Shown here: in pieces, positions 628 through 33,891 of the stretch | Position numbering within the stretch: the first letter of the stretch is position 1 | How the letters are laid out: every line of letters begins with the position of its first letter | Assembly (NCBI GenBank): GCA_041660885.1 | Contig: JBAZVM010000001.1 | Span: forward strand, 102,698-166,697 | Direction: 5' to 3' | Length of the DNA stretch: 64,000 bases | From: Patescibacteria group bacterium | Lineage (GTDB): Bacteria; Patescibacteriota; Patescibacteriia; UBA9570; JAHJKD01 | Made by a program: the position numbers and the translations under genes | Notes under the pieces: model-generated | The model's database searches: none | What the model saw: only the letters and a program-made list of their open reading frames with translations | Told to the model about the DNA's origin: nothing

Positions 628-1650
628 ATGCCAAACTTAGATGCCCGGAATATGCTCGGTTCCATAGAAATGCTGCCCAAACAATGCCAAGACGCATGGC
701 AAGCCATGAAAAAAATAAAATTGCCCAAGACATATAAAGCCATAAATAAAGTTGCGGTTTTTGGCATGGGCGGTTCTATAATTGGTATGGATGTCATTAA
801 AAATTTGTTCTCCGCTGAAATAAAAATTCCGGTTATTTTAGTTAATGATTATCAAATACCCGCACGTATCGATAACAATACTTTAGCCATATTATCCAGC
901 TATTCCGGATCAACCGAAGAAACCGTTGCCGCAGCGAAAAACATATTACGCAAAACAAAAAAAGTATTTGTGATAACCAGCGGCGGATATCTGGCTAAGT
1001 TTGCCGCGCAGCATAATTTACCTGCTTATATAATCAATCCGCGCTTTAATCCATGCAACCAGCCGCGCATTGCTTTGGGATATTCCGTAGTTTCACAAAT
1101 AGCTTTGCTGTCCAAATTAAACGTATTGAAAGTGACGGAAAAAGATATAAATAATTTAGCGCGCTTTTTAAGTGCTCAACAGAAGAAACAAAAAAAACAA
1201 ACGCTAAATCTAGCAAAAAAAATAAAAAATCACATATTAATATTAGCGGCTTCGGAGTTTTTACTGGGTAACGCGCATGTCATGGCCAATCAAATCAACG
1301 AGAACGGTAAAAATTTCGCGGCTTACTTTCCCATACCAGAATTAAACCATCATTTAATGGAAGGACTTTCTAATCCAAAAAGCAATAAGAATAATCTATT
1401 TTTTATTTTTTTAAATTCTTCCTTATATCATTCTAGAGTAAAAAAGAGATACGCTATTACTCAGAAAGTTTTAGAAAAAAACAGTATAAAATATTTTGAA
1501 CAAACCGAAAACGCGAAAAATAAATTATTACAATCTTTTTCCATTTTGCAATGGGGCGCTTTTTTAAGCTTTTATTTGGCCATAGCCAATAAAATCGACC
1601 CATCTCCCATTCCTTGGGTGAATTATTTTAAAGATGCGCTTAAAAAATAG
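628..1650 (+). CDS. bifunctional phosphoglucose/phosphomannose isomerase family (SIS domain)
   Basis: 340-aa ORF. The N-terminal MLGSIEMLPKQCQDAW...VAVFGMGGSIIGMDV and SYSGSTEET motifs are typical of archaeal/bacterial PGI-PMI SIS proteins. Confidence 0.75.
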   Translation: MPNLDARNMLGSIEMLPKQCQDAWQAMKKIKLPKTYKAINKVAVFGMGGSIIGMDVIKNLFSAEIKIPVILVNDYQIPARIDNNTLAILSSYSGSTEETVAAAKNILRKTKKVFVITSGGYLAKFAAQHNLPAYIINPRFNPCNQPRIALGYSVVSQIALLSKLNVLKVTEKDINNLARFLSAQQKKQKKQTLNLAKKIKNHILILAASEFLLGNAHVMANQINENGKNFAAYFPIPELNHHLMEGLSNPKSNKNNLFFIFLNSSLYHSRVKKRYAITQKVLEKNSIKYFEQTENAKNKLLQSFSILQWGAFLSFYLAIANKIDPSPIPWVNYFKDALKK

Positions 1651-3142
1651 ATTACTGCTAATTTTAATTTTTCTTTTAAGCCTTACTCTTTTTGCTCGGC
1701 TGGAATCGGATTTAACTTTTTCCGATCCCGATTCTTTTTATCACGCGCGCTTTACTAAAATAATAAGCGAGCAAGGAGTAGTTATAAATTTTCCTTGGCA
1801 AACGCAAACGGTATTACAAGATTATTTCACTGACCATCATCTTTTATATCATCTAATATTAGTTCCGTTAGCTAGATATTTCCCCGGGGAAATAGCGGTT
1901 AAAATCGGTTCAATTATTTTCAGCGCTTTTTTTATCGCATTACTTTATTGGTATTTTGCTAAACGGAAAGTTAAGTATGCCTGGGCTTTTATTTTTTTGT
2001 TGCTTACCATCGGACCATTTGTTTTACGGCTTTCTTTGCCCAAGGCCACGCCCTTGGCTTTGATTCTATTATTATTGGGAATATATTATGTTGAAGAAAA
2101 AAAATATTTACTTTTATTTTTAATTTCTTTTTTATACGTTTGGGCGCATGGCGGTTTTTTAATTTTATTTTTGGCGGCTGTAATTTTTTGTACGGCCAAA
2201 TTCGTAGAGACGAAGCATGCTTCTTCCCTACATTCCATCCTAGTTGTATTAGGCGGTTTTTTAGCCGGGCTGGTAATCAACCCCTATTTCCCCAATAATT
2301 TATGGTTCTATTGGCAGCAGGTGGTGCAGATAGGGATTATCAATTATAAAGACCAAATCGATGTTGGCGCGGAATGGTACGCATATTCTTTGCCTGATTT
2401 AATTGGAGCCACGAGCTTAATGTGGATTGTTTCTATTTTAGGTGTATTGATTTTTTGCATATATTTAAAAAAACAAAAAGCATCAAGCATCAGTTGGCTA
2501 ATATTATCCGTCATTTTGTTTGTGGCGACTCTCCGCTCTAGAAGATTTGTGGAATATTTTGTGCCCGCTATGCTTATTTTCAGTTCTTTAACAATATCTT
2601 GGTTTTTAAATTCCATGTATTGGAAAAAGTTTATTAAAGAAGCAAAAGTTTGGTATGAGAGAAAAAAAATATTAAGCATAATTTTGCTTATTTATTTGGC
2701 TTTGGCGATTCCTTTTAGCATGGGCCGCACTTTGTTATCTTTGAAAAAAGAATTAAAAAGCGGTTTTCCCTTTGATACTTTTAAAGGCGCCTCGGAGTAT
2801 CTTCAAAAAAATACGGTGCCAGAAGACATTATTTTCCATGCCCGGTGGGATGATTGGCCGATATTATTTTTTCATAATCAATCCAATTATTATATTGTGG
2901 GTTTAGACGCGACTTTCATGTACAAATATAATAAAGAGCGTTATATTTTATGGGATAAAATCGGTAGCGGCCAAATCAAGGATAATTTGGCGGAAACTAT
3001 AAAAAATAATTTTAACTGCCACTATGTTTTTATCAATAATAAAGAAGAAGATACGCGATTATTTCAAGCTTATTTAGAACGAGATAGCGGCGTTAAAATA
3101 ATTTATGAAGATGACGAGGCTACTGTTTATGAAATTATATAA
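1634..3142 (+). CDS. polytopic GT-C-fold membrane glycosyltransferase-like protein, paralog A (STT3/AglB/PglB-like motifs)
   Basis: 502 aa with more than 10 hydrophobic segments. It has an acidic first-loop motif FSDPDSFYHARF, a mid-protein loop DVGAEWYAY, and a soluble tail starting IIFHARWDDWPILFF...VGLD. Confidence 0.5.
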   Translation: MRLKNRLLLILIFLLSLTLFARLESDLTFSDPDSFYHARFTKIISEQGVVINFPWQTQTVLQDYFTDHHLLYHLILVPLARYFPGEIAVKIGSIIFSAFFIALLYWYFAKRKVKYAWAFIFLLLTIGPFVLRLSLPKATPLALILLLLGIYYVEEKKYLLLFLISFLYVWAHGGFLILFLAAVIFCTAKFVETKHASSLHSILVVLGGFLAGLVINPYFPNNLWFYWQQVVQIGIINYKDQIDVGAEWYAYSLPDLIGATSLMWIVSILGVLIFCIYLKKQKASSISWLILSVILFVATLRSRRFVEYFVPAMLIFSSLTISWFLNSMYWKKFIKEAKVWYERKKILSIILLIYLALAIPFSMGRTLLSLKKELKSGFPFDTFKGASEYLQKNTVPEDIIFHARWDDWPILFFHNQSNYYIVGLDATFMYKYNKERYILWDKIGSGQIKDNLAETIKNNFNCHYVFINNKEEDTRLFQAYLERDSGVKIIYEDDEATVYEII

Positions 3143-4643
3143 ATTAATATTTAATATTTATACCAAATTTTTTTTATTATTTATTTTTTGCGTTTTATTA
3201 TTCACTTATTTTCAATTAAGCGAGAATTTCCCCGATCCTGACGCTTTTTATCATTTAAAAATCGGCCATTTGATTTGGCAGAATGGCGTAGTGGTTGATT
3301 TTCCGTGGGCGCAATATACGGTGCTGAAAGATTATTACATAGATCATCATTTGCTGTATCATTTTGTTCTGTCGCCATTTGTTAATTTGCTACATCCTTT
3401 GGTTGGCGTGAAAGTAGCCACTATACTATTGGCTAGCTCGTTTATTTTTCTTTTTGCTTTGATCGCGCGAGCGTTGAAATTAAAAGCCGGCATTTTATTA
3501 GGTGTTATAATGGCCGTAACCATTCCGCTTACTTTCCGGTTGAATCTGGTTAAGGCCAATTCTTTGTCGTTAATAATATTATTTCTAGGAATTTATTTAG
3601 TAGTCAAGAAAAAATACATTTGGCTTTTTTTATTGTCTTTTTTATATGTCTGGGCGTATGGGGGATTTGCGGTTTTATTATTGGTGGCAATAATTTTTTG
3701 TATGGCCCGTTTTGCAGAGACGAAGCATGCTTCGTCTCTGCTGCCAATCCCCATCGTATTAGGCGGATTCATCGCCGGTATAATCATTAATCCGTATTTT
3801 CCGAAAAATTTATGGTTCTATTGGCAGCAGGTGGTGCAAATCGGTTTGGTGAATTATCAAGATAAAATTGGCGTAGGCGGAGAATGGTATCCCTATGGTT
3901 TTGTGGAATTAATTACCGGATGTTCTTTGCTTACAGTGCTTATGGTGACAGCTCTGCTGATTTTTTTTATTTTTATAAAAAAACAATCAGCTCTTTCGTG
4001 GGCAAGCTTCATTCTTTACGCTTTGGGTTTGTTTTTAGTATTAAAATCCAGGCGCTATATAGAATACTATGTTCCCTTTACCGCCTTTTTTATTGTTAAT
4101 GTTTTTTCTATTTTTAGCGCCAAGCAGATAATAATCTGGCTGATTAAATTTTGGCATTACCATTTTATCAATAAAGTTTTTTGTTTTATTGCCGTAATAT
4201 ATATTTTGCTGGTTGTTCCGGCTATTGCGTATAAAGATTTTAAAATAAATTTGCGCGATTTGCGCGGAGGAATCAGTTATAATAAATTCGCACCGGCCAT
4301 GGAATGGCTGCAAAAAAACGGAGAGAAAAACACCATAGTTTTACATAGCGATTGGGATGAGTTTCCCATGCTTCTTTTTCATAATAGTGATAATTATTAT
4401 ATTGTGGGCTTGGATCCGACTTTTATGTATAAATATGACGAAAAAAAATATTGGCAATGGGTGGATATAACAACCGGAAAACAAAAAGAAAGTTTGCCGA
4501 AAATAATTAAAAACGATTTTCAAGCTAAATACGTATTTTTAGAAAAGGATCATACGGCCATGGATGATAATATGCAAAATTTTTCTCAATTCACTTTGAT
4601 ATACGAAGACGACGAAGCTAAAATATATAAATTAGAAATGTAA
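3105..4643 (+). CDS. polytopic GT-C-fold membrane glycosyltransferase-like protein, paralog B (the start may be the ATG at 3129)
   Basis: 512 aa and collinear with paralog A (FPDPDAFYHLK, ETKHASSL, NPYFPKNLWFYWQQVVQIG, GVGGEWYPY, LHSDWDEFPMLLF...VGLD). Confidence 0.5.
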   Translation: MKMTRLLFMKLYKLIFNIYTKFFLLFIFCVLLFTYFQLSENFPDPDAFYHLKIGHLIWQNGVVVDFPWAQYTVLKDYYIDHHLLYHFVLSPFVNLLHPLVGVKVATILLASSFIFLFALIARALKLKAGILLGVIMAVTIPLTFRLNLVKANSLSLIILFLGIYLVVKKKYIWLFLLSFLYVWAYGGFAVLLLVAIIFCMARFAETKHASSLLPIPIVLGGFIAGIIINPYFPKNLWFYWQQVVQIGLVNYQDKIGVGGEWYPYGFVELITGCSLLTVLMVTALLIFFIFIKKQSALSWASFILYALGLFLVLKSRRYIEYYVPFTAFFIVNVFSIFSAKQIIIWLIKFWHYHFINKVFCFIAVIYILLVVPAIAYKDFKINLRDLRGGISYNKFAPAMEWLQKNGEKNTIVLHSDWDEFPMLLFHNSDNYYIVGLDPTFMYKYDEKKYWQWVDITTGKQKESLPKIIKNDFQAKYVFLEKDHTAMDDNMQNFSQFTLIYEDDEAKIYKLEM

Positions 4644-4686: not shown

Positions 4687-4724
4687 AAAACCTCTCCCCT
4701 TAAGGATAGAGAGGTTTTGCTTTT
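4687..4724. terminator. bidirectional intrinsic terminator between convergent genes
   Basis: Hairpin aacctctc...gagaggtt, flanked by an A-run upstream and a T-run downstream. Confidence 0.6.
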
Positions 4725-4747: not shown

Positions 4748-5116
4748 TTAGCTGGTGAGGGTTAATAAATTTTCTATGGCATAAACGGAAATACCCCAAG
4801 CCGCTAATATAATCACCAAGCCGATAATGGCCGCGATTAATAATTTTTTAGCGCACTCCACTGTTTCTTCATTGCCGCCGGCAGTCATCCATTTAAAACC
4901 ACCGACAAGAATCATAATAACGGCAACCAAGGCTAAAATACCCAAGATCCAGTTAATAATAGATACAACTAAATCTTCTGGGCTGGCGTTGCCTAAGCCG
5001 ATATTGGACGCGGCGTCCGGCACTACATCCACATCTGCTGCTAAAACGGAGCTGGCAGCTAGCGTGCCGATTCCGACGGCCATCCACTTGCTGATTTTTT
5101 GAGAAATTTTATTCAT
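4748..5116 (-). CDS. VirB2/TrbC-like (T4SS-pilin-like) small membrane protein, paralog 1
   Basis: Signal peptide (..SSVLAAD), a variable segment, then the core ILALVAVIMILVGGFKWMTAGGNEETVECAKKLLIAAIIGLVIILAAWGI. A strong SD (aaggaggtg) precedes the ATG. Confidence 0.65.
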   Translation of the reverse strand: MNKISQKISKWMAVGIGTLAASSVLAADVDVVPDAASNIGLGNASPEDLVVSIINWILGILALVAVIMILVGGFKWMTAGGNEETVECAKKLLIAAIIGLVIILAAWGISVYAIENLLTLTS

Positions 5117-5150
5117 TTAATTCACCTCCTTTCATAAAAATATATAAGAT

Positions 5151-5179
5151 ATTATATAGTATTTTTATATTCATAGCAA
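5151..5179 (-). promoter_or_regulatory. sigma70-like promoter for paralog 1 (TTGCTA-17-TATAAT on the minus strand)
   Basis: The minus strand reads ttgcta tgaatataaaaatacta tataat, about 35 nt upstream of the SD. Confidence 0.5.
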
Positions 5180-5252
5180 ATAAAATAGGGGCAAATAAAG
5201 GGAGAATATATATCCTCTCTTTATTGTATGATTATTTTTTTGGTTGCGTACG

Positions 5253-5282
5253 TTGACCAAAGTGCTAAAAGTGTGTTATAAT
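5253..5282 (+). promoter_or_regulatory. sigma70-like promoter for the six-gene mini-pilin operon (TTGACC-18-TATAAT with an upstream TG)
   Basis: ttgacc aaagtgctaaaagtgtgt tataat, 34 nt upstream of the 5316 start. Confidence 0.55.
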
Positions 5283-5315
5283 TAGAATTAATTAAACATT
5301 CTTCCCTTATTATTT

Positions 5316-5795
5316 ATGGAAAGAAATAAAATAAAAAAATTTATATTACCGGCATTGGGTTTGGTAATTTTTTTTAGCATTATTTTTGGTTTGCCAGCGT
5401 ACTCTTTCCTCGCCGCCGCCACAGCATCTGATTCCGACTTAACCTTTGATCCGGGGGGCACTTTAAGCGATGTTACTGATTTAGGGAACAGAGATCCTGC
5501 CTCCATAACATACGACGTGGTTAATTACGCTTTGCTTTTTCTGGGTTTAATAACGGTTGTGATGATTATTATCAGCGGTTTTATGTGGATATTCGCCGCG
5601 GGCAACGAGGAAAAAATAAAAAAAGCGCAGGAAATATTGAAAGGAGCAGTTATCGGCTTGCTTGTTATCATGATTTCCTACGGTGCAGCGCAATATGTGT
5701 TCGATAAATTAGTAGAAATAACTACAGGGGCTGTACCCACAACAACCAGCTCAACGGAAACAGAGGAAACCGGAGTAATAATACCAGAGGACTAA
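5316..5795 (+). CDS. VirB2/TrbC-like small membrane protein, paralog 2 (with an extra T/S/E-rich C-terminal tail)
   Basis: Core LGLITVVMIIISGFMWIFAAGNEEKIKKAQEILKGAVIGLLVIMISYG. Confidence 0.65.
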   Translation: MERNKIKKFILPALGLVIFFSIIFGLPAYSFLAAATASDSDLTFDPGGTLSDVTDLGNRDPASITYDVVNYALLFLGLITVVMIIISGFMWIFAAGNEEKIKKAQEILKGAVIGLLVIMISYGAAQYVFDKLVEITTGAVPTTTSSTETEETGVIIPED

Positions 5796-5817
5796 TGAAA
5801 TATTATCAGAATAATTT

Positions 5818-6207
5818 ATGAAAATAAAATTTTTTTTACCAATTGTTATTCTTTTATTAGTGCGGTTATTGCCAAATTTAATGCCCGTTTTGGCAGCTGA
5901 TATTTGCTATGATCCGTTTTGCGAACAAGGCCTTATCCAAGCAGGCACCGGGCTTGGCGATGTAGAACCGCAAATTATTTTGGCTAGAATTATTAATGTT
6001 TGTCTCGGCCTCTTAGGCATAGTTAGTATCTGTTTAATGGTCTATGCCGGTGCTCGATGGACGTTGGCCAGAGGTAATGAAGAAGAGGTGAAAAAAGCGC
6101 AGGAAATATTAAAAGGTGCGGTTATCGGGCTGGTTATTGTTCTTACTTCATATTCCGTTGCCTATTTTGTTTTTACCAATTTAGTTAAAGTATCCAATGC
6201 GTATTAA
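5818..6207 (+). CDS. VirB2/TrbC-like small membrane protein, paralog 3
   Basis: Core LGLLGIVSICLMVYAGARWTLARGNEEEVKKAQEILKGAVIGLVIVLTSYS; signal peptide ..PVLAAD. Confidence 0.65.
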   Translation: MKIKFFLPIVILLLVRLLPNLMPVLAADICYDPFCEQGLIQAGTGLGDVEPQIILARIINVCLGLLGIVSICLMVYAGARWTLARGNEEEVKKAQEILKGAVIGLVIVLTSYSVAYFVFTNLVKVSNAY

Positions 6208-6595
6208 TAAATTTGCACAATTATTATTTATTTGTTTATTTTTCGGCATTTTAATATTACCTGTTGCTCAAGCGGAATTATCTTTTGACACAAAAGATAA
6301 TTTTTCTGGCTGGGGTTCCGTTAGTTCTTTGCGCCTTTCTCAGCAAGATGCCACCCCTTTGGCCATAGCCCTTAATTTAATTAACACCGCTCTAACTTTT
6401 TTAGGATTGATCAGCAGTGGATTCATTCTATATGCCGGTTTACTATGGTTTACGGCCAGGGAAAACGAAGAACAGGTAAAGAAGGCTTTGGATATCATTA
6501 AGGGTGCGGTAATAGGCTTGGGTTTGGTATTGTTATCTTACGGTATTTCTTTTACCGTGTATTCTATATTTTTAAGTTCCTCTGTCTCAACTTAA
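6197..6595 (+). CDS. VirB2/TrbC-like small membrane protein, paralog 4
   Basis: Core LGLISSGFILYAGLLWFTARENEEQVKKALDIIKGAVIGLGLVLLSYG. Overlaps paralog 3 by 11 nt. Confidence 0.65.
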   Translation: MRINKFAQLLFICLFFGILILPVAQAELSFDTKDNFSGWGSVSSLRLSQQDATPLAIALNLINTALTFLGLISSGFILYAGLLWFTARENEEQVKKALDIIKGAVIGLGLVLLSYGISFTVYSIFLSSSVST

Positions 6596-7003
6596 ATGAA
6601 AAAAATATTCACCATTATTTTTCTTTCCGCGATGTTCTTATGCTCTGCTACCTTAGCTCTCGAAAGTGATAATACAACACCGGAAATGACTTTTAACCCC
6701 AATGATTCCGACGCTACTCTTGGTTCCAGCACTTTATTAAATTTGGGAACAGCTTCCCCTTTGCAAGTTATTTTTACTTTAGTTTCTATTGCTTCTTCTT
6801 TGCTGGGCATTATTTTTTTGATTCTCATTATTTATGGAGGGTTTGTGTGGATGATGGCCAGGGGCAATGAGGAAGAGGTGAAAAAAGCGCAAAAAATAAT
6901 AGAAAGAGCCGTAATCGGTTTGGTAGTTGTTTTGTTATCCGTTTCCATTGCCTATTTGTTTTATTGGTTATTTTCTGGTTCAGGCGTTGTTGAACAAACT
7001 TAA
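6596..7003 (+). CDS. VirB2/TrbC-like small membrane protein, paralog 5
   Basis: Core LGIIFLILIIYGGFVWMMARGNEEEVKKAQKIIERAVIGLVVVLLSVS. Its start abuts the stop of paralog 4. Confidence 0.65.
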   Translation: MKKIFTIIFLSAMFLCSATLALESDNTTPEMTFNPNDSDATLGSSTLLNLGTASPLQVIFTLVSIASSLLGIIFLILIIYGGFVWMMARGNEEEVKKAQKIIERAVIGLVVVLLSVSIAYLFYWLFSGSGVVEQT

Positions 7004-7023
7004 ATTAGAAATTAATATTATAT

Positions 7024-7428
7024 ATGAAGAATAATTTTGGTGTTAAATTTGTTTCCTTCGTTGTATTACTGATAATTTTTACTTTTGCTTTTTCCGTTTC
7101 AGCCGGAACCGTGTCCTCTTTTTTTCCAGAAGAAGAAGGCGTTGATTTTAATGATTTAGCTTTAAAAAAAGCAGATGTTTTTACTTCAGTATCTTTAATT
7201 ATAAATTACGCATTAACATTTTTAGGCACTGTATCTTTAGTGTTGATTGTTTATTCCGGCGCCAGATGGATGCTGGCCAGGGGCAATGAAGAAGAAATTA
7301 AAAAATCGCAGGAAATTTTAAAAGGCGGGGTTATTGGCTTGGTAATCATTCTTTCTTCTTATGCGCTTTCCTATTTTGTTTTTACTTCGTTGGTTGATAT
7401 AGTAGCCGGAGCCGAATTGCCTGATTAA
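7024..7428 (+). CDS. VirB2/TrbC-like small membrane protein, paralog 6
   Basis: Core LGTVSLVLIVYSGARWMLARGNEEEIKKSQEILKGGVIGLVIILSSYA. Confidence 0.65.
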   Translation: MKNNFGVKFVSFVVLLIIFTFAFSVSAGTVSSFFPEEEGVDFNDLALKKADVFTSVSLIINYALTFLGTVSLVLIVYSGARWMLARGNEEEIKKSQEILKGGVIGLVIILSSYALSYFVFTSLVDIVAGAELPD

Positions 7429-7458
7429 TTATTTTATTTTAAAGATTAAATAAAAAAT

Positions 7459-7863
7459 ATGCTTAAAAAATTTTTAAAGCAAAAAAACAAAATAGCGCTT
7501 TTTTGTCTTGGTTTGGTTATTTGCGCTATGCCTTTGTTGGGCGCTTATGCAGCGGCTTACACGCCGAAAGAAGTAACTTTTGATCCGAACGAGGATATCC
7601 TTCGTAACAGTAAGTTAGGAGAAAACGATCCCGTTGCCGTTGTGGCTAATATTATTAACTGGGTGCTTGGCATATTGGGTTTAGTTGCCTTAGTGCTGAT
7701 TATATACGGCGGCGCTCGATGGATGCTTTCTGGCGGGAACGAAGAACAAATTAAATCAGCTAAAGATACTATTATTGGGGCGATAATTGGCATGGCCATT
7801 ATATTGGCCTCTTATGGCATTTCCAGTTATGTGTTTAATACTCTGGTGAACGTGACGAATTAA
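7459..7863 (+). CDS. VirB2/TrbC-like small membrane protein, paralog 7
   Basis: Core LGILGLVALVLIIYGGARWMLSGGNEEQIKSAKDTIIGAIIGMAIILASYG. Confidence 0.65.
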   Translation: MLKKFLKQKNKIALFCLGLVICAMPLLGAYAAAYTPKEVTFDPNEDILRNSKLGENDPVAVVANIINWVLGILGLVALVLIIYGGARWMLSGGNEEQIKSAKDTIIGAIIGMAIILASYGISSYVFNTLVNVTN

Positions 7864-7885
7864 ATAAATTAGATTCGCAAAAATA

Positions 7886-7916
7886 AAACCCCGCCATGGC
7901 GGGGTTTTATTTTTTT
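7886..7916. terminator. bidirectional intrinsic terminator
   Basis: aaaaccccgccatggcggggtttt hairpin with flanking A and T runs, between convergent genes. Confidence 0.75.
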
Positions 7917-7926
7917 ATGAATTTTT

Positions 7927-8307
7927 CTACGCCCCGGTAGAACCGGCAATGATTTTAAATACGTAGCTTAAGATGGAATAACTAGTGAGCACGATAGCCA
8001 TACCGATTATAGCCCAAATTAATGTTCCTCGTCCTTTTTTTAGCTTCTCTTCATTTCCTTGGGAGAACACCAACATAAACCCGCCATAGATAAACATAAG
8101 TAAAGTAACGGCACCCAATACCCCCAGCATGGCGCGTATCACATTGGCGATTATAATTGTTGGGTTGCTTTCACTAATGGGGTTGGTAAGTTCCGTGCTA
8201 GAAGATGATGCCGCTGTGCTAGCATCCTCAGACAAAATCATATTTGGAACCAATATCGAGAAGCATAGACAAACCATTAAAGTATTAATTAGAATTTTGA
8301 TTTTCAT
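7927..8307 (-). CDS. VirB2/TrbC-like small membrane protein, paralog 8
   Basis: Core LGVLGAVTLLMFIYGGFMLVFSQGNEEKLKKGRGTLIWAIIGMAIVLTSYS. Confidence 0.6.
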   Translation of the reverse strand: MKIKILINTLMVCLCFSILVPNMILSEDASTAASSSSTELTNPISESNPTIIIANVIRAMLGVLGAVTLLMFIYGGFMLVFSQGNEEKLKKGRGTLIWAIIGMAIVLTSYSILSYVFKIIAGSTGA

Positions 8308-8322
8308 ATTTTATAAAATAAT

Positions 8323-9543
8323 TTAATCAGCTGGTTTACAGCATTTATAAGTTGGGTCTTTTCCTTTGGCATGCGGGCATAAGTCTCCAGATAAGCAAGA
8401 TTCTGCGCCCAAGGTTGTCCAAGATTGAGTTTCCACAGATTTGCGACTTGTATCAACGCATTCATATTCCCCGTAAGTTGTCGGGTATTTTCTGGAAATT
8501 TGTTCGCATAAAGAAATGCAATCACAGTCTCCTGCGCATTCCCCATCCAGTATTGGGCTATTTTTATTGCATCCGGCTAAACAATCATCTAATTCTTGTT
8601 CGCATTCAGCATCACAAGCATTTTCGCATTCAGTTTGAATATCCTGATCATCTAAATATCCTAAACAAGTTGATACCACACAGGAGTCATCTCCTGCGCA
8701 ACCCGTTTCGCAGGTGTCATATTCCGGTGTTCTACCAGCAGATTCAATACATGTGTCCATTATGCATGAAGTACCGCAATCAGTGAGATCATGATCAGAA
8801 TTACAGCCATCACTGCAAGTAGTGGCTTGTGATTTTGCGCAAATACATTTCTCAGCTCCGGTAGCACCTTCATTGGTGCAATTATTGCAATAAGTTCCCG
8901 TTGAGGCAGTCTCAGTATTACAATCGGAAACAGTAGTAATTGCGCATGAGGGGAATTGCCACCATACATTTCCGTTTGATAATGTTACACTGCTGTCTAT
9001 ATTTGTTACATTTTTTCCTACAAGTACGCCGATTATAGTATTAACGCCAACCCAGGCGAAGGCCACGATAATAACGCCGGTTATGGCCGCGATGAGAATC
9101 TTTTTGCCTTTTTGCACTCGTTCTTCATTGCCTGAAGATGTTATCCAATAAAAACCACCGAGTACAAACATAAGCAATGTCATAGTGGACAAACTGCCCA
9201 TAATTATTTTTGAATATCCTATAACCGTATTAATCACGTCGCAAACAGTACAAGTGGAGGTACCGCCTTCTCCGCTTGTAGCGCATTCAGGAACTAAATG
9301 GAACTCAGTAGCCGTACTATTTGAAGTACTAGAATCGCTAGAATCAGACGGACAGGTCGGTCGGCTGCCATCAGGGCAATCCTCGCAAGTGGATCCGCCC
9401 GATAAAGTATAAGTACATGTTGCTAAAGCGCTGCCGCAGTAAGGATCTCCACCATCAGAGCATTGGTCATTAGCTGAACTAAAATTCGGAAAATATAAGA
9501 AAGTAATGAAGAATAAAAATAAAATACCAATTTTTTTATACAT
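8323..9543 (-). CDS. cysteine-rich secreted/membrane protein with an embedded VirB2/TrbC-like core (paralog 9, fusion)
   Basis: 406 aa. Signal peptide, then a Cys-rich N-terminal segment, then the core LSTMTLLMFVLGGFYWITSSGNEERVQKGKKILIAAITGVIIVAFAWVG, then a roughly 230-aa Cys/Asp/Thr-rich tail. Confidence 0.6.
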   Translation of the reverse strand: MYKKIGILFLFFITFLYFPNFSSANDQCSDGGDPYCGSALATCTYTLSGGSTCEDCPDGSRPTCPSDSSDSSTSNSTATEFHLVPECATSGEGGTSTCTVCDVINTVIGYSKIIMGSLSTMTLLMFVLGGFYWITSSGNEERVQKGKKILIAAITGVIIVAFAWVGVNTIIGVLVGKNVTNIDSSVTLSNGNVWWQFPSCAITTVSDCNTETASTGTYCNNCTNEGATGAEKCICAKSQATTCSDGCNSDHDLTDCGTSCIMDTCIESAGRTPEYDTCETGCAGDDSCVVSTCLGYLDDQDIQTECENACDAECEQELDDCLAGCNKNSPILDGECAGDCDCISLCEQISRKYPTTYGEYECVDTSRKSVETQSWTTLGAESCLSGDLCPHAKGKDPTYKCCKPAD

Positions 9544-9545
9544 AA

Positions 9546-10922
9546 TTATAGCGTTAATTTCATTTTTTGCGCGGCATCGTCCACTATATCTTCCAAAGGG
9601 AAGGCTTCATTAAGCGCGTTAGTAATCATTTGTGCAAAAATGGAGGCGGCTTCTTCCGGATTCTTGCCATGGTACCAGCTTTGCGCGGTAAGAGCTTGCT
9701 CGCTGAAAGTGGCTAATTCGTAATCTTCCAATTGAGTGCTTATTAAATTGCGGCGGGCCGCGGGTTTTTTGTTGGTATCTAGATATTTTTTAGCATTTGT
9801 TTCGTTCGTTAAGTATTGCACGAAAGCCCAAGCTAAATCGGAGTTTGCGGAATTCAGAGAAACGGATTCAAGCCAATAAGAAGGGTAATTAACTTGGTTG
9901 GAAGCGTTGATTTGCGGCAGGGGAGCCACATCGAAATTTAAGGTCGGAGCCAATTGTTTTATTTCCTGCAAATCGCGGTGATAGCCTATGTAGTAAGCCA
10001 GATTTCCCGCGGCAAATTCATCTAGGGCATTGGTTTTTGTTTCGTTCCAGGTATATGTTTCCCATTTATCTTGTGCGAATTTTACATAAAAATCCAAAGC
10101 TTCTTGGGCTGGTAATCTTTTGCTCCCGTTAATTTCCACTTCGCTGTTAAACTTGATTGAATTATCCGTAGCCATTTCCGCGCCAAATTGCATCATTAAA
10201 ACAGACATGATATCGAAATAATGCGGAATATTATCGGCTGTGCCCATGGCCACGCCGGATTGCAAGATGTTTCCTTGCTTATCTACTTTAGTTAATTCTT
10301 TGGTATGGTCTGCCACGGCTTGCCAATTGGAAGCGGGGACCGCGATGCCGGCTTGATTTAATAAATCTTTATTCCAATAAAGAGCCAAAGTATCAGTAGA
10401 TAGCGGCAAAGCGTATATTTTATTTGTAGCTTCATCTTCATCCTCTCCTTGGATGGCGAATACCGCGTCTTTGTAAACGGTATCGACGAATTGGGTGTTT
10501 AATTCCGAGGAACTGATGGATTTTTGCGCTACTTTCTGCACAATAGTCTGCTTTTTGCCCATAGTACTTTTTTGTTCCACGGTAGTTACCGTTATAGAAC
10601 TGGGCAATGGTGAAATATATTCGGAAAACTTTTTAACTCCGGTGTTTTGCACGGAAAAAATATCCGGCCCTTGGCCTTTAGCCCAGCCGTTGATCACTTC
10701 ATTTTCATATTCATCGTAATCTAACTTTTTAAACTCAATGACCACATAAGGATACATGGCTTGGAAGGACTCGATGAACGGGCTCACTTCTTCTTCGGTT
10801 AAATCGGCGCTCCAATATTGGAGGGTAACTGTGGCCGGCATGGTGCCGCTCTTGCTGCAAATGGCTCCGCTGGTGCTTAGCACCAAGCATAATAAAAATA
10901 AACCAATAATATATTTTTTCAT
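9546..10922 (-). CDS. ABC-transporter-type extracellular solute-binding protein (family 1, sugar-type); probable lipoprotein
   Basis: 458 aa. Signal peptide with Cys (..TSGAICS), then ..TLQYWSADLTEEE...GPDIF...ALYWNKDLL.., typical of SBP_bac_1. No permease or ATPase gene is adjacent. Confidence 0.7.
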   Translation of the reverse strand: MKKYIIGLFLLCLVLSTSGAICSKSGTMPATVTLQYWSADLTEEEVSPFIESFQAMYPYVVIEFKKLDYDEYENEVINGWAKGQGPDIFSVQNTGVKKFSEYISPLPSSITVTTVEQKSTMGKKQTIVQKVAQKSISSSELNTQFVDTVYKDAVFAIQGEDEDEATNKIYALPLSTDTLALYWNKDLLNQAGIAVPASNWQAVADHTKELTKVDKQGNILQSGVAMGTADNIPHYFDIMSVLMMQFGAEMATDNSIKFNSEVEINGSKRLPAQEALDFYVKFAQDKWETYTWNETKTNALDEFAAGNLAYYIGYHRDLQEIKQLAPTLNFDVAPLPQINASNQVNYPSYWLESVSLNSANSDLAWAFVQYLTNETNAKKYLDTNKKPAARRNLISTQLEDYELATFSEQALTAQSWYHGKNPEEAASIFAQMITNALNEAFPLEDIVDDAAQKMKLTL

Positions 10923-13158: not shown

Positions 13159-13983
13159 ATGTTTGGTTTTAAAAAGAAAAAACTTCATTTAAACCCCAGA
13201 TACGGCAAGGCGGAAACGCCATCCGTGCACGAGTTCACTTTGGAAAAATATTACGATCTCTACAGCCGTAGCACAGAGGGAGCGGAAAAAATTCACACCC
13301 TTATTTTAGGCGCTACTCCGGAATTACGGGATATTGTTTTAAGCTATGGCCATCAATTAACCGTTGTAGACAGAAATAAAGAAGCTTTGGAAGAAAAAAC
13401 CCGATTAATGCATTATAAAAATTCTCCGTTAGAAAAAGTGATAATAGGAGATTGGCTGAATATCGATTTTCCCGCCAATTATTTTGATGTGATTCTAGGC
13501 GATGGCGTTTTAACCGCTTTGGATAAAGCAGAACAGCAAAAGCTATTAAAAATATTAAAGAAAATATTAAAGCCGACCGGCAGCCTGCTTTTGCGCGAGG
13601 AGGCTAAGGCTACGGAAAAAATAAATTTTGATCCATCGGATATAGTCAGCCACTATCGCTCCGGGCATTATAATATTTTTGATTTATTTTTTGGTCTTAG
13701 ATTGCATAATAAAAATTACAAAGCGGTTGATCCTAAAACTCAGCGCATTCGCTTGCAAGATTTTTTAAATAAATTGGACGAATACAATAAAAACGGAATT
13801 ATCAGCCAAGAAGAGCTAAAGCAATTAAAAAGTGTAGCCGAAGAGCTAGAGCATACTTTACTAAGCAAGACAGAAATTGAGCAGGCTCTGCATAACCAAT
13901 TCAGCCCCAGAGAAATCACCCATGATATTGGTTCGGGCCATTTATCACCTTGGTATTTTTTTCTGCACCAGCCGCGCGATTAG
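13159..13983 (+). CDS. class I SAM-dependent methyltransferase
   Basis: Motif I-like ILGATPELRD...VVDRN and DVILGDGVLTAL..LKPTGSLLL. Confidence 0.6.
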   Translation: MFGFKKKKLHLNPRYGKAETPSVHEFTLEKYYDLYSRSTEGAEKIHTLILGATPELRDIVLSYGHQLTVVDRNKEALEEKTRLMHYKNSPLEKVIIGDWLNIDFPANYFDVILGDGVLTALDKAEQQKLLKILKKILKPTGSLLLREEAKATEKINFDPSDIVSHYRSGHYNIFDLFFGLRLHNKNYKAVDPKTQRIRLQDFLNKLDEYNKNGIISQEELKQLKSVAEELEHTLLSKTEIEQALHNQFSPREITHDIGSGHLSPWYFFLHQPRD

Positions 13984-16093
13984 CCAATTTTGTTAGAAAC
14001 TCTTTTATAATACCTGTTTTATAAACCAGAAAGATTATTCCCGCCGTCAAAACGGCTATAGCTATTAATAAATAATTAATAATATTTTTGTTGTCGGATA
14101 TTTTATTCAGGCTCATATTGCTCCCTGTTTCCTCGGCATAAGCCGCTTTGATAATTCCACCACTTTCTTCGTTTGTGGCGCCTTCTTCGGTTGTGATATC
14201 TTCCGCGCTTCTGATTAATAAGCGGTATTCTTCTTTATATTGGCTGACAATGCCCGTGGCTTTTATCATCTGGCCTTCTTGGTATTTGCTTTTGTCGAAT
14301 TCCACATTGGATTTTATATAGATTATTACGCCGTTGGCCAAGGTGACTCTCGTGGTGGTTAATTCCAGAATTTGACCTTGCGTAGTTATTAATTTGCCTT
14401 CTAAATCTTCATCTAGAGACTCCGCCTCAGTCATATCTAAATCTTGTTCTTGATCAATTATTTCTATATCTTCCGCTAAGCTGATATTTATTCGTTTCTC
14501 GTTATATGCTTCAGATACTTTGCCTTTAACACGAATCAAATCTCCCACTTTCAAATCCGGAAAAAGTTTTTGCGAGGAATATATCTGCATGCCGGAAGAC
14601 GCATCTTGAATATAAAAATATTGGCTGCCTAAAATATTAGGGAGTACCGTAACCACCCCCTCGATACTGACCTTGGCATCTTTTTCCTGTTCGCGCGCTT
14701 CTTGAATACTAAGCAGAGGGTATTCTTCGCTTTCTGTTGTTGCCTCTTCCTCTTCTGTTGTTTGCTCCACTATATCGTTGCTCTCGTTAGGAGTGATTTT
14801 AGAAGACCAAGCCCATTCCGTGCCATCCGCGCTGTAACTGAAGCCGGTTATGGATTTAGGATATGTGACTTGTGAGATGGTTTTATCTTCCGGGTCCGTC
14901 AAAGTTATAGCCTCTCCCAAGTTATTTAAAGAAATTTTCGTTTCCGTTATATAAAATGCTTTATATTCATGCGCTTTTAATTTTATACTTTCTTCGAACG
15001 TGAAAGTGCGGCTTAAATCGGAAATGTTCCAGCCGAATAAATCCATTTCATTATCTTCGCCATTATAAATTTCGATAAATTCATCTTGCGTATCCGACCC
15101 CTCGGGATCAGGGAGTAATTCCGTAATTTTTATTTTATCGGAAAAGAAATATTTTTGCTCGTTTGCCGCATCTTCTATTTTATTATCATTATTTGGTGTG
15201 GGTTGATTTGTCCAATACCATTTTTGATCTTTATAACTATAGCTTTGGCCTTTTTCTCCGCCCGTATATTCTAAAGTTTGAGCTATGGTACCGTCTGGCT
15301 TATATAATTTTATAGTGTCACCATCATTATTAAGGGATATTTTAGTTTCATCTCCGTAAACCGTGTAATATTTTTCTATTTCCGCGCTAATAGTAAATTT
15401 TTTATCGGTGGCATCGCTCAGTTGCCAGCCATTTAAATTTACTTTTTTGTCTCCTTTATTTTTTAGTTCTATAAATTCAATTTCTCCTTCAACAGGATCG
15501 GCGTAAATTTCGTTTATTATAATATCATCGGAAAGTTCATATGTTGAATTATTTTGGTTGCTTTCAGGAAAAACATTCTCCGCGTTTGGCGTTGCCGGAG
15601 TAACCCAACTCCAATTATTATTACTATCACGGCTATAGCTATAGTCTTCTTGCGCGCTATCGGTAAATGATACGGCTTCCAGCTGCGTATTATCTGGTTG
15701 AAGAAGAGAGACAGTTTCACCGGAGTTGTTTAGGGATATGTTAGAGATAGAAGCGTAAATCGTAAAAAATCCGCCGGCTTTTATAGTTGTGTCGCTATAA
15801 TCGTCCGCGCTAATTTTATAGATTTTTTCCGACGCGTCTTTTAATTGCCAATCGGTTAGGCAGACATCGTCGCTTCCTAAATTTTTTAGTTCGATAAATT
15901 CAAACTCGCTATCTGTGCCAGAGGGGTTGGGCATAATTTCGTTGAGAATGATTTGATTTGAATAAGTAATCGGCCCTGTTTCCGGGTCTGTTGGGCATTC
16001 GCACGGGCAGGTGCAGTCTTCGGCAAACAAGATTCCAGGCATTATGGCTACTCCCCATGCTAGCCATAAGGTCATGATAATTTTTTTTGTCAT
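13916..16093 (-). CDS. lamin-tail-domain (LTD) repeat surface protein with an OB-fold-like region and a C-terminal membrane anchor
   Basis: Signal peptide. Three LTD starts (IILNEIMPNPSGTDSEFEFIELKN, IIINEIYADPVEGEIEFIELKN, IKITELLPDPEGSDTQDEFIEIYN) and a C-terminal TM segment NYLLIAIAVLTAGIIFLVY. Confidence 0.7.
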   Translation of the reverse strand: MTKKIIMTLWLAWGVAIMPGILFAEDCTCPCECPTDPETGPITYSNQIILNEIMPNPSGTDSEFEFIELKNLGSDDVCLTDWQLKDASEKIYKISADDYSDTTIKAGGFFTIYASISNISLNNSGETVSLLQPDNTQLEAVSFTDSAQEDYSYSRDSNNNWSWVTPATPNAENVFPESNQNNSTYELSDDIIINEIYADPVEGEIEFIELKNKGDKKVNLNGWQLSDATDKKFTISAEIEKYYTVYGDETKISLNNDGDTIKLYKPDGTIAQTLEYTGGEKGQSYSYKDQKWYWTNQPTPNNDNKIEDAANEQKYFFSDKIKITELLPDPEGSDTQDEFIEIYNGEDNEMDLFGWNISDLSRTFTFEESIKLKAHEYKAFYITETKISLNNLGEAITLTDPEDKTISQVTYPKSITGFSYSADGTEWAWSSKITPNESNDIVEQTTEEEEATTESEEYPLLSIQEAREQEKDAKVSIEGVVTVLPNILGSQYFYIQDASSGMQIYSSQKLFPDLKVGDLIRVKGKVSEAYNEKRINISLAEDIEIIDQEQDLDMTEAESLDEDLEGKLITTQGQILELTTTRVTLANGVIIYIKSNVEFDKSKYQEGQMIKATGIVSQYKEEYRLLIRSAEDITTEEGATNEESGGIIKAAYAEETGSNMSLNKISDNKNIINYLLIAIAVLTAGIIFLVYKTGIIKEFLTKLANRAAGAEKNTKVINGPNQYHG

Positions 16094-18692: not shown

Positions 18693-21600
18693 ATGAACAA
18701 AAATAAAAATAAAATAAACAAATTACTCTTTGTAATTGATAAAAATTATTATCATTCTTTCATTATTTTTCTTGCGAGCATTTTTATTGTGTCGTTTTTT
18801 TGTATTTGCGGTTTTTTTCAGCCGGTCTTAGCCGATACTACTTTTACCGTAAATGATCTAGGTGATGCCACGGATGACAACGCTGGCGATGGTGTTTGCC
18901 ATACAGCCGGAGGCGTTTGCACTTTTCGCGCCGCTATCGTTGAAATCAACGCTCTCGCCGGAAACCACACAATAAATTTTAGCGTAGCCGGAACTATCGA
19001 AGTGGCTTCAGTAGTAACATTAAGCCGTGCTAATACTACCATTGATGGCGGAACCAATCACGACGTGGTTATTAATGGCACCGGCACCGCCGGCATCCAT
19101 TGCATCACCATTAATGGCGTGGATAATAATATTATCAATGGGTTGGTAGTTCAGAATTGCCAATATGGATTTAATTTAGCTAACGACTCGGACAACAATA
19201 AAATCCAGAATAATTACATTGGCACCAACGCGGCGGGTACCGCAGCCGTGGCTAATAGCAGGGGAATTAGCGCATCCGCTTCCACTACCGGAAACATCAT
19301 CGGCACGGACGGAGATGGCGTGAACGACGCCAGTGAAAAAAATTTGGTATCCGGCAATGTCGGCGGCATATATATGGCCACTGCGACCAATTGGATTGTT
19401 GCGGGAAATTATATTGGTACGAATTTGGCTGGTACTGCCGCCATTGCTAATACTAATTACGGAATGTATCTTACTACCTCAAGTAATAGCAATACCATAG
19501 GCACGGATGGTGACGGAGTTTCCGATGATCTGGAAAGAAACGTTATTTCCGGTAACTCAGGAGCGACTTATGGAGCTTTATATATAACTGGTTCCAATAA
19601 CAATATCATTGCCGGCAATTATATTGGTACCAATGCTGCTGGCACTGCCGCCATTGCCAATATTTATGGAGTATATATTACTGGCGCCTCGCAATCCAAT
19701 ATAGTCGGCACCAATGGTGACGGCGTCGGAGACGCGGCGGAAAGAAATATTATTTCCGGCCATACTGCTGGTTTTGGCGTTTATATTGTTGGCGCAAACT
19801 CAAATACAAATCGCGTGGCAGGCAATTATATTGGTATTAATGCGGCCGGCACAGCAGCCGTGGCTAATAGCAGCGGTGTTGTTATTTCCACAGCCGCTCA
19901 ATCAAACATTGTGGGCACTAACGGCGATGGCGTGGCAGACGCGGCTGAGCAAAATGTTATTTCAGGTAATACAAATTACGGTGTTTATATCACGAGCGCT
20001 AATTCATACTATAACCGTGTAGCTGGAAATTATATTGGCTTAAACGCGGCTGGAGACACAGCCATACCTAATACTCATGGCGTGTATATTTATAGCTCTG
20101 CTTCATATAATACTGTCGGTACAAACGGCGATGGTGTTTCCGACGATTTGGAAAGAAATATTATCTCGGGCAATACCACAGCAACAGGCTATGGCGTTTA
20201 TATAAACTTATCTTCTAATTCTACCACTGTAGCTGGAAATTATATCGGCTTAAACGCGGCCGGCACAGCGGCTATTGCCAATGACAGCGGCCTTGTTATT
20301 GTCTCGTCCTCTTCAAATACTGTCGGTACAAACGGCGATGGTGTTTCCGACGATCTAGAGAAAAATGTCATATCGGGAAATACCGCCGGTTATGGCATAT
20401 ATATGGTGACATCTTCAAATTCCAATACCGTAGCTGGCAACTACGTTGGCACCAACCCGGCCGGAGACGCGGCCATCCCCAATGCTTATGGCGTTTATAT
20501 GGGCGGAGCTTCGAACTCAAACATTGTCGGCAACAATAGCGATGGCGTATCCGACGATTTGGAAAGAAATATTATTTCGGGTAATAATGGAACTTACGGG
20601 GGCGTTAGCATATCCGGTTCCAGTAGTAATATTGTTGCCGGAAATTATATTGGTACCAACGCGGCCGGCACAGCGGCTATTGCTAATGCTAATGGTGTTT
20701 ACATATTCAGCGCTTCGCAATCGAATATTATCGGCACCAATGGCGATGGGACGGCTGATGCCACTGAGCGTAATGTAATTTCCGGAAATACTAGTTATGG
20801 TGTTTACATATTAAATGCAAATTCAAATTCCAATCGCATAGCGGGCAATTATATTGGTACCAACGCGGCCGGCACAGCAGCCGTGGCTAATGGCCATAGC
20901 GGTGTTGTTATTTCTGCGTCCGCACAATCAAATATTGTAGGCACTAACGGTGATGGCGTGGCAGACGCGGCTGAGCAAAATATTATTTCAGGTAATACTA
21001 ATTACGGCGTTTATATAGTGAATGCTAATACATACTATAACCGTGTAGCCGGAAACTATATCGGCTTAAACGCGGCCGGAGACACAGCTATATCCAATAC
21101 TTATGGCGTGTATATTTATAGCTTTGCTTCATATAATACTGTTGGCACCAACGGCGATGGTGTTTCCGATGATCTAGAAAGAAACATCATATCTGGAAAT
21201 ACCACCGCGACTGCTTATGGTGTTGTAATATCAACTTCCGCCAACTCCAATACCGTAGCTGGCAACTACGTTGGCACCAACCCGGCTGGCAACGCGGCCA
21301 TTGCTAATGATAATGGCGTCTATATTGTTAGTGGTGCGCAATCTAACTTTGTTGGTACTAATGGAGATGAATCTGGCGATGCGGTTGAACGTAATATTAT
21401 ATCCGGTAATACTGGTTATGGCGTGGTGATAAATAGTGTTACCACTATTTCTAACACTGTGGCCGGCAACTACATCGGCTTAAACGCGGCCGGAGACGCA
21501 GCCGTGCCAAACGTTAGCAGAGGAATGATAATTATTGCTGCCATCTCAAATACTATTGGTACAAATAGCGATGGCGCCTCGGATGATTTGGAAAGAAATA

Positions 21601-30548: not shown

Positions 30549-30674
30549 GTCCTTAGCTATAGATATGTGCACAACCTGTAGATATGTGTAGCTAAAACGA
30601 GAACTTTGACAATTGAATACTAGTATAGTGATTTAATCAAAAGTGTTTTGAATTTTTTAACCGACAATATGTCG

Positions 30675-33597
<2,923 letters not shown>

Positions 33598-33781
33598 ATA
33601 TTGACGGTTAAATCCAAATATTTTATACTAGTCCAATGGAACATTTAAAACGTTATTCGGTTGCCTGGAAACTAGTCGGAGTATTCTTTGCCTTAACGAT
33701 GATAATTACATTCGTTTTGCTCAATACCACTCCCGCTATTGCCGGTAACTAAACACCATACCTCATGAGAGGGTGATGGTG

Positions 33782-33891
33782 TTCTGGTGCTTCAAGCGAA
33801 GGGGTCACACCTGTTCCCATTCCGAACACAGTCGTTAAGCCCTTCAGCGCCGATGATACTACTTCGTGGAAAAGTAGGTCAGCGCCAGAAC
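33782..33891 (+). rRNA. rrf: 5S ribosomal RNA
   Basis: TCTGGTGCTTCAAGCGAAGGGGTCACACCTGTTCCCATTCCGAACACAGTCGTTAAGCCCTTCAGCGCCGATGATACT...GCGCCAGAAC. Confidence 0.9.

Follow-up and report, generated by a model that had tools for sequence, protein, structure and literature searches.

We analysed an array of nine small pilin-like genes lying between positions 4748 and 9543 of a 64-kb stretch of a Patescibacteria genome (contig JBAZVM010000001.1; the whole 64,000-nt stretch is called the window below). The nine open reading frames (ORFs), named W1 to W9 in coordinate order, have exactly the coordinates and strands given in the original prediction, which was made from the letters alone and had likened them to the VirB2/TrbC pilins of type IV secretion systems (T4SSs). 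W1 (4748-5116, minus strand) is monocistronic. It is followed on the plus strand by six co-directional, tightly packed genes: W2 (5316-5795), encoding a protein of 159 aa with a C-terminal tail rich in Thr, Ser and Glu; W3 (5818-6207), whose product carries a conserved two-cysteine ICYDPFC segment; W4 (6197-6595), which overlaps W3 by 11 nt; W5 (6596-7003), whose first base directly follows the W4 stop codon; W6 (7024-7428); and W7 (7459-7863), whose product is identical to NCBI WC752_00580. The last two copies, W8 (7927-8307) and W9 (8323-9543), are on the minus strand, with the gene of a solute-binding protein (SBP) directly upstream of W9 (9546-10922, minus strand; SBP_bac_1, PF01547, E = 7e-19). 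The gaps are 2 nt between SBP and W9 and 15 nt between W9 and W8, the last gene of this unit, and we propose from this arrangement that W9 and W8 are co-transcribed with the SBP gene. W9, which bears the name 'pilin' in the NCBI annotation, is a long protein of 406 aa in which the pilin core is preceded by a 78-aa Cys-rich N-terminal extension (9 Cys) and followed by a 230-aa Cys-rich C-terminal ectodomain (29 Cys). All nine copies are complete ORFs with a start codon and a signal peptide; no silent or truncated cassettes were found among them, and a hidden Markov model (HMM) built from the nine cores recovers exactly these nine copies, and no others, in the window.

Candidate expression signals surround these units. 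An extended Shine-Dalgarno (SD) site, GAAAGGAGGTGA (5122-5133, minus strand), ends 5 nt upstream of the W1 start codon; a consensus scan predicts a promoter-like site for W1, TTGCTA-17-TATAAT, at 5151-5179 (minus strand, 10 of 12 positions), and a terminator scan finds a terminator-like hairpin followed by a T-run downstream of the gene (4694-4713, minus strand). For the W2-W7 unit, the consensus scan predicts a promoter-like site with a TG extension, TTGACC-18-TATAAT, at 5253-5282 (plus strand, 11 of 12). Between the convergent genes W7 and W8 lies a perfect 18 + 18 nt palindrome, AAAAATAAAACCCCGCCA / TGGCGGGGTTTTATTTTT (7879-7914), whose arms are 100% complementary and which is flanked by A and T runs; as far as its sequence tells, it is a probable bidirectional intrinsic terminator for the convergent units. 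Taken with the co-directional packing, the promoter-like site and the inverted repeat support the proposal that six of the copies form one operon with its own predicted promoter and terminator.

The nine proteins share one architecture. Hydropathy analysis revealed, in all nine, an N-terminal hydrophobic segment resembling a signal peptide (signal peptides were judged heuristically, from charge, hydrophobicity and AXA-type patterns) and two hydrophobic segments around an invariant NEE loop, which together make up the core. The AlphaFold2 model of W7 is a helical hairpin, with helices at residues 58-89 and 95-133 (pLDDT 81-93). The topology foreseen for these proteins, a signal peptide plus a two-helix hairpin, is thus backed by hydropathy for all nine and by structure prediction for W7; the model of W9, built from 6 sequences, has a mean pLDDT of 43 and is unreliable for the Cys-rich ectodomain. 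Among the nine cores, identity averages 39% (range 27-64%; z = 16 against shuffled sequences, with z > 3 in 36 of 36 pairs), the alignment has invariant columns L, G, N, E, E and G, and its consensus agrees with the one quoted in the original prediction. Conservation of the loop at the DNA level was likewise confirmed: the 20-mer AAAAAAGCGCAGGAAATATT, for which 0.06 matches are expected by chance, occurs exactly at 5619 and 6091, with variants at 6881 (3 mismatches) and 7300 (2 mismatches). Gene conversion was considered as the origin of the 20-mer common to W2 and W3 and found unnecessary, the surrounding DNA being 66-76% identical and the 20-mer encoding the conserved KKAQEIL. Where repeated DNA is shared between copies, over 114-164 nt, its identity is 66-76%, and long stretches of identical sequence that would point to recombination were not detected. 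As for the mature segments between the signal peptide and the core (N-segments), the statement that they differ completely in length and sequence goes too far. Their pairwise similarity is indeed weak (mean z = 1.5), although 7 of 36 pairs reach z > 3. In length, eight of them range from 19 to 32 aa, and the one long segment is that of W9 (78 aa). Several N-segments also have motifs in common, [ST]F[DN]P just after the signal peptide and LGxxxP before helix 1.

We established that the nine proteins belong to the T4SS_pilin family PF18895, which they all match with E-values from 3e-14 to 1e-5, in agreement with the original prediction of a catalogued T4SS pilin family enriched in the Candidate Phyla Radiation. 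Seven score above the gathering score of 26.6 bits (W1, the best of the nine, 53.1; W7 44.9; W8 38.8; W5 37.1; W2 33.5; W3 32.0; and W9 30.9, at residues 105-166), and W4 (26.2) and W6 (25.5) fall within about 1 bit below it. Despite these marginal scores, W4 and W6 are plainly homologous, since they match the local core HMM with E = 5e-31 and 5e-34, respectively, and have orthologs in relatives. With the TrbC/VirB2 family PF04956, W1 (26.3 bits, E = 8.6e-6) and W8 (20.3 bits) give matches below the gathering score of 27.9, the other seven pilins give none, and the W1 ortholog L021.1 of a relative described below carries a precomputed TrbC match. The best NCBIfam match of all nine is NF045849, the Mbov_0395 pilin-like conjugal transfer protein (14.5-35.4 bits, below the cut-off of 40). 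None of the nine matches the class III signal and N-methylation motif of type IV pilins (PF07963); their N-termini are of the Sec type. The PF18895-type family is large, with 92,415 representatives (clusters at 50% identity) at E <= 1e-3 in a profile search. It includes single-chain natural fusions of 2 to 17 pilin cores: P0026, P0029 and P0033 hold 2, 6 or 17 tandem cores behind one signal peptide per polypeptide, P0026 being composed of one signal peptide and six hairpins. Because they have no internal signal peptides, these proteins look like genuine fusions rather than read-through of tandem genes, and they suggest an assembly in which different hairpins are neighbours, an arrangement that would fit a filament and a membrane ring equally. 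In another Patescibacteria metagenome-assembled genome, pilin cores lie inside very long ORFs (L009 7163-9841 and 9860-15286; 893 and 1809 codons from stop to stop), which may be giant pilin-anchored surface proteins.

Homologs of W7 led to closer relatives of the array, L021, in which the W7 ortholog is 71% identical, and L018/L022 (61%). A common layout was found in the window and in these relatives: PGI, polytopic membrane proteins, one pilin gene on the minus strand, six or seven pilin genes on the plus strand, a pilin and a long Cys-rich pilin on the minus strand, SBP and UDPGP. Each of the nine window pilins has a one-to-one positional ortholog in L021 and in L018 (L021.1, L021.2, L021.4, L021.5, L021.6 and L021.9 for W1, W2, W4, W5, W6 and W9; L018.1 and L018.10 for W1 and W9), with ortholog scores of 111-201 bits as against 54-107 bits for the best paralog. 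Pooled over the W1-W7 orthologs, identity to L021 and L018 is 76% and 69% in the core, 63% and 45% in the N-segment, 46% and 34% in the signal peptide, and 26% and 19% in the C-terminal tail. The N-segments are better conserved between orthologs than the signal peptides and are class-specific; therefore they are constrained, not hypervariable. In W3, for instance, the ICYDPFC...GLGD segment is retained in all three genomes (window, L021 and L018), and 19 of 24 N-segment residues are identical to those of L021.3. Real length variation is limited to the W8 and W9 classes, in which Cys-rich modules are gained and lost between relatives; the W8 class acquires Cys-rich N-extensions, and its member L021.8 has 216 aa with a Cys-rich insert. 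In L018, an extra duplicate of the W2 class (7523-8361) brings the number of co-directional genes to seven, and in L022, of the same relative, a further pilin gene that the window lacks (10001-10375) is placed between PGI and YebC. From these extra copies, copy number appears to change slowly.

At larger distance, W7 was used as query against species-representative genomes; the 14 loci retrieved are 32-60% identical to it and belong without exception to Patescibacteria. A co-directional six-pilin operon is present in 10 of these loci and a solo copy about 3-6 kb upstream of it in 7. In a tree built from the cores, the genes of L002, L003, L008, L012, L014 and L015, which are of the Falkowbacteria or Uhrbacteria type, sort by operon position, with a separate clade of orthologs for each; W1 belongs with the genes of position 1 (op1), and W9 groups with the solo copies that follow an SBP gene. 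In a neighbour-joining tree of 77 columns, W2-W4 and W6-W8 group with each other, which could reflect a lineage-specific expansion or long-branch attraction. For the 25 residues that precede the core, identity in the distant genomes is 38% among orthologs and 21% between paralogs of the same genome. Thus, given the positional orthologs and the class-specific, conserved N-segments, the differences between the paralogs are old and fixed.

One class stands apart by its expression signals. The SD site of W1, GAAAGGAGGTGA, has a duplex energy of -21.5 kcal/mol, the next best of the 56 genes of the window reaching -10.6 and the median being -2.0 kcal/mol. SD sites are scarce in the window (4 of 56 genes at -8 kcal/mol or lower), and it is because the window genes are almost entirely devoid of them that the W1 site stands out. 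In all 11 genomes examined, the SD motif GAAAGGnGGTGA stands before the W1-class gene and is missing before every other pilin gene. In the distant loci op1 opens the operon; stable hairpins lie directly 3' of it in 8 of 8 cases (z from -3.0 to -11.8), and the other gene junctions of the operon, where listed, are of 30 nt or less or overlap. A hairpin motif, GTGGTTCTCAT..ATGGGAATCACTGGC..GCCAGTGA, recurs downstream of op1 in L002 (8146-8198), L003 (10403-10493), L015 (1157-1245) and L008 (7875-7978), and is a candidate for a conserved attenuator or for an element that stabilises the mRNA. The combination of an SD site with a 3' hairpin or terminator suggests, as a pattern of sequence signals, that this class is the major structural subunit and is expressed more strongly than the accessory ones. 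Neither the SD site of the W1 class, nor its 3' terminator or hairpin, nor the W9-SBP pairing described below was found described in the literature searched; in particular, positional orthology, a single SD-bearing class and SBP pairing are not described in the portions considered here of the report on Patescibacteria VirB2 arrays by Quinonero-Coronel et al. 2025 (PMC12102498).

At the other end of the array, W9 is paired with the SBP gene well beyond the window. In L002, L003, L004, L005, L006, L008, L012 and L014, the gene immediately upstream of the solo or W9-class pilin is an SBP ortholog (36-40% identity). A tightly spaced pair of SBP and Cys-rich pilin-core genes is therefore found in at least 9 genomes, that of the window included (for example, L012 1136-2907 and L014 5523-7546), and no ABC permease or ATPase gene is adjacent to the pair.

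The array lies in an ordinary stretch of chromosome. The window contains PGI, UDP-glucose pyrophosphorylase, transaldolase, MetK, 23S and 5S rRNA, RuvA, FemAB, CofD, XseA and LexA genes, and the GC content of 2-kb segments over the array (0.36-0.41) is inside the overall range of the window (0.34-0.47). In agreement with the original prediction, no VirB4, VirB6, VirD4 or relaxase gene was detected among window ORFs of at least 110 aa, even at lenient Pfam thresholds; none of these was detected in the 6.5 kb upstream of the window either, and no T4SS machinery was found within about 10-20 kb of the arrays in the relatives. Directly upstream of the array lie two paralogous polytopic membrane proteins of about 500 aa without Pfam match (1634-3142 and 3105-4643, both plus strand). 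The corresponding block of L018 also holds two genes of the MptA_B family (GT-C mannosyltransferase-like), and the L012 array is flanked by GT87-like and GT2 genes; these neighbours possibly serve glycosylation of the envelope or of the pilins. Elsewhere in the window, several genes are predicted to encode large surface proteins: a protein of 2183 aa that combines Big_9, cadherin-like and beta-helix domains (18693-25244, plus strand), a 725-aa protein with lamin-tail and OB-fold domains (13916-16093, minus strand), an S8 subtilase of 1125 aa with Ig-like and peptidoglycan-binding domains (39086-42463, minus strand) and an FG-GAP repeat protein that continues past the window end (62191->64000, plus strand). 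A full-length heliorhodopsin gene (47920-48684, plus strand; PF18761, E = 4e-98) adjoins tRNA-Ser and methionine sulfoxide reductase genes. The 23S and 5S rRNA genes (30673-33890, plus strand) have no 16S gene directly upstream, hence the rRNA operon is unlinked.

We propose, with a probability of roughly 0.6, that the nine genes encode distinct, individually conserved VirB2-like PF18895 subunits of a T4SS-associated, pilus-like apparatus of Patescibacteria, with W1 as the major and W2-W9 as minor subunits. Each pilin would be exported by Sec and would span the membrane as a hairpin of two helices, its GNEE..KK loop in the cytoplasm and both termini outside, as hydropathy and the AlphaFold2 model indicate. 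Assembly would then be carried out by a machine of the VirB4/VirB6 type encoded elsewhere in the genome, as homology and the published genetics of Saccharibacteria suggest. The main building block, expressed above the others, would be W1, a single-gene unit with a promoter-like site of its own, a terminator-like site and the one strong SD site of the region. The products of the W2-W7 operon, which is without SD sites, together with W8 and W9, would be low-abundance accessory subunits with fixed, paralog-specific exposed segments, presumably co-assembled with W1 in one filament, to which W9 (and W8 in relatives) would contribute Cys-rich ectodomains. Several points weigh against this proposal. 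No pilus of PF18895 proteins has yet been seen experimentally (PMC12857230). Since T4SS genes were found neither in the window, nor in the 6.5 kb upstream, nor in the sampled flanks of the relatives, homology is the sole link between the array and a T4SS. Abundance is gauged only indirectly by SD strength and 3' hairpins, and the duplex energies were computed with an anti-SD tail assumed to be canonical, as the 16S gene is not in the window. Finally, structural comparison did not single out a VirB2 fold: a Foldseek search of the W7 model against the PDB gave no match at E <= 1e-3, its top matches being generic helical hairpins (SipB, EmrA, ATP synthase subunit c), and a profile search of PDB sequences returned no solved homolog, only spurious matches to designed 'Pizza' proteins and cytochrome oxidase. 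The hairpin fold is too simple for the Foldseek result to discriminate.

The original prediction had favoured another interpretation, namely that the paralogs form a variable surface repertoire of alternative filament subunits or adhesins, whose tips would widen the host range or evade recognition. The idea, also raised in PMC12102498, draws on the strong difference between paralog N-segments (mean z = 1.5) and the core (z = 16), on a copy number that varies somewhat (a W2 duplicate and an extra copy by PGI in L018) and on the gain and loss of Cys-rich modules in the W8 and W9 classes between relatives. It is disfavoured by the one-to-one orthologs, since the order and identity of all nine classes are kept, and by the N-segments themselves, which are constrained between orthologs (identity 63% and 45%, higher than that of the signal peptides) and class-specific in distant genomes. 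Moreover, six of the genes are in one operon, so they are probably co-expressed rather than switched, and neither truncated or silent cassettes nor long identical recombination tracts were found (repeats are 66-76% identical). We therefore regard an antigen-diversifying repertoire as improbable; a role of the array in host attachment is possible.

A rival of a different kind questions the filament. The hairpins might build a hetero-oligomer embedded in the membrane, as a ring, a channel or a platform, perhaps acting with the SBP in uptake and perhaps independently of any T4SS. The natural fusions of 6-17 hairpins in one polytopic chain can be read in this way, as can the SBP and W9-class pair, which occurs in at least nine genomes with no ABC permease gene next to it, and the facts that the array is unlinked to T4SS genes in the window and in the sampled flanks of relatives and that no pilus has been observed for the family (PMC12857230). 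Similarity at the family level to TrbC/VirB2 and to the pilin-like protein of a Mycoplasma integrative and conjugative element (ICE) speaks for a pilin instead. In conjugative F and T pili, both termini of the pilin are exposed outside; the tandem fusions are for that reason also compatible with a filament, which counts against a purely membrane-embedded complex. In addition, the Saccharibacteria array lies inside a T4SS cluster (PMC10633639, PMC12857230), and of 1948 Patescibacteria assemblies, 1135 have a pilin gene in the neighbourhood of virB4 (PMC12102498). We consider a membrane complex unlikely, if worth keeping in mind. By far the least credible explanation is that the genes are pilins of a conjugative mobile element, an ICE or a plasmid, integrated at the locus. 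The family name points that way, as does a remote resemblance to conjugative pilins and the Mycoplasma ICE protein, but the flanks are housekeeping genes (PGI, UDP-glucose pyrophosphorylase, transaldolase, MetK, rRNA, RuvA), synteny is kept in relatives, the GC content of the array is within the range of the window, and relaxase, coupling protein, integrase and VirB4 were not found in the window. We rejected this explanation on genomic context.

A more specific and frankly doubtful extension may be put forward: a heteromeric filament or conduit of fixed stoichiometry, with W1 as major and eight minor subunits, in which the Cys-rich members (the W9 class, and W8 in relatives), produced together with the orphan SBP, would form a tip or adaptor that captures or channels host-derived molecules, the subunit genes having become detached from the T4SS cluster. 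Were it true, this would be a nutrient-uptake organelle made of T4SS pilin parts. VirB2-like arrays belong to the small number of Patescibacteria-specific traits that epibiotic growth has been shown to require. The nine ortholog classes, the constrained exposed segments, the single strong-SD class and the pair of Cys-rich pilin and SBP turn a vague idea of a repertoire into a testable structural one, and the distinction between a major and minor subunits shows experimenters which gene to tag, delete or purify first.

Comparison with known systems places the locus most closely among the VirB2 arrays already published for Patescibacteria, of which 441, with 2-11 genes, found with PF18895 and PF04956, are reported in 383 assemblies (PMC12102498). 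With nine contiguous copies, the window array falls under the definition used there (at least two PF18895/PF04956 genes in tandem, or with one gene between, in Patescibacteria). It resembles these arrays in its low identity, 25-39% to W1 over whole proteins, within-array identity being 25% on average and 54% at most in the published set, and it differs in its taxonomic setting, since the published arrays are most abundant in Microgenomatia and Saccharimonadia whereas the relatives of the window are named Falkowbacteria, Uhrbacteria and Parcubacteria. Linkage to virB4 is incomplete there too, holding for only the 1135 of 1948 assemblies mentioned above, and the authors suggest that paralogs might help adaptation to different hosts. 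A close counterpart is Southlakia epibionticum, in which a series of predicted pilins in a T4SS locus is essential (Wang et al. 2023 Cell, PMC10633639); there are six sequence-divergent VirB2-like pilins, and a pilus is not yet demonstrated (2025 review, PMC12857230). Like the window, S. epibionticum ML1 (SEML1_0006-0019) has six co-directional, structurally alike, sequence-divergent VirB2-like genes and no linked relaxase, and a role in the epibiotic lifestyle, rather than in conjugation, is likely for both. Its array is inside a T4SS cluster, in contrast to that of the window, which has no T4SS gene in the window or in the sampled flanks; the window in turn has three more copies, with W1 inverted and monocistronic and W8 and W9 behind the SBP gene.

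The likeness to other systems is looser. With the TrbC/VirB2/TraA proteins (PF04956; Agrobacterium T-pilus, RP4 and F), the window proteins share small size, a signal peptide, two hydrophobic helices and a short charged loop, yet they score below the gathering score of that family, come from a monoderm host, are many paralogs rather than one and have no adjacent VirB3-B11 genes. Their best NCBIfam match, Mbov_0395 or MMCAP2_0565 of the Mycoplasma ICE (NF045849), is also a monoderm protein, from a T4SS of the MPF-FATA type, although all window scores are below the cut-off and the context is chromosomal, not that of an ICE. The VirB2 arrays of Bartonella and Anaplasma phagocytophilum are likewise tandem multiplications in a host-associated bacterium; they are read as antigenic or host-range variation, whereas the window orthologs are conserved class by class, the exposed segment included. 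The hallmarks of antigenic or phase-variable pilins, whether of the Neisseria pilE/pilS type or of Anaplasma and Bartonella VirB2, namely a hypervariable exposed region and silent donor cassettes, were not found in the array. As a working analogy, the sets of type IV pili and of type II secretion pseudopili combine, in the manner proposed for the window genes, one highly expressed major gene with accessory genes of low expression around a common hydrophobic core; their fold and biogenesis are unrelated, and the window proteins, which have a Sec-type and no class III signal, are not members. The window array is thus a further case of the published Patescibacteria VirB2 arrays and nothing categorically new, and its interest lies mainly in the major/minor signal and in the pairing with the SBP.

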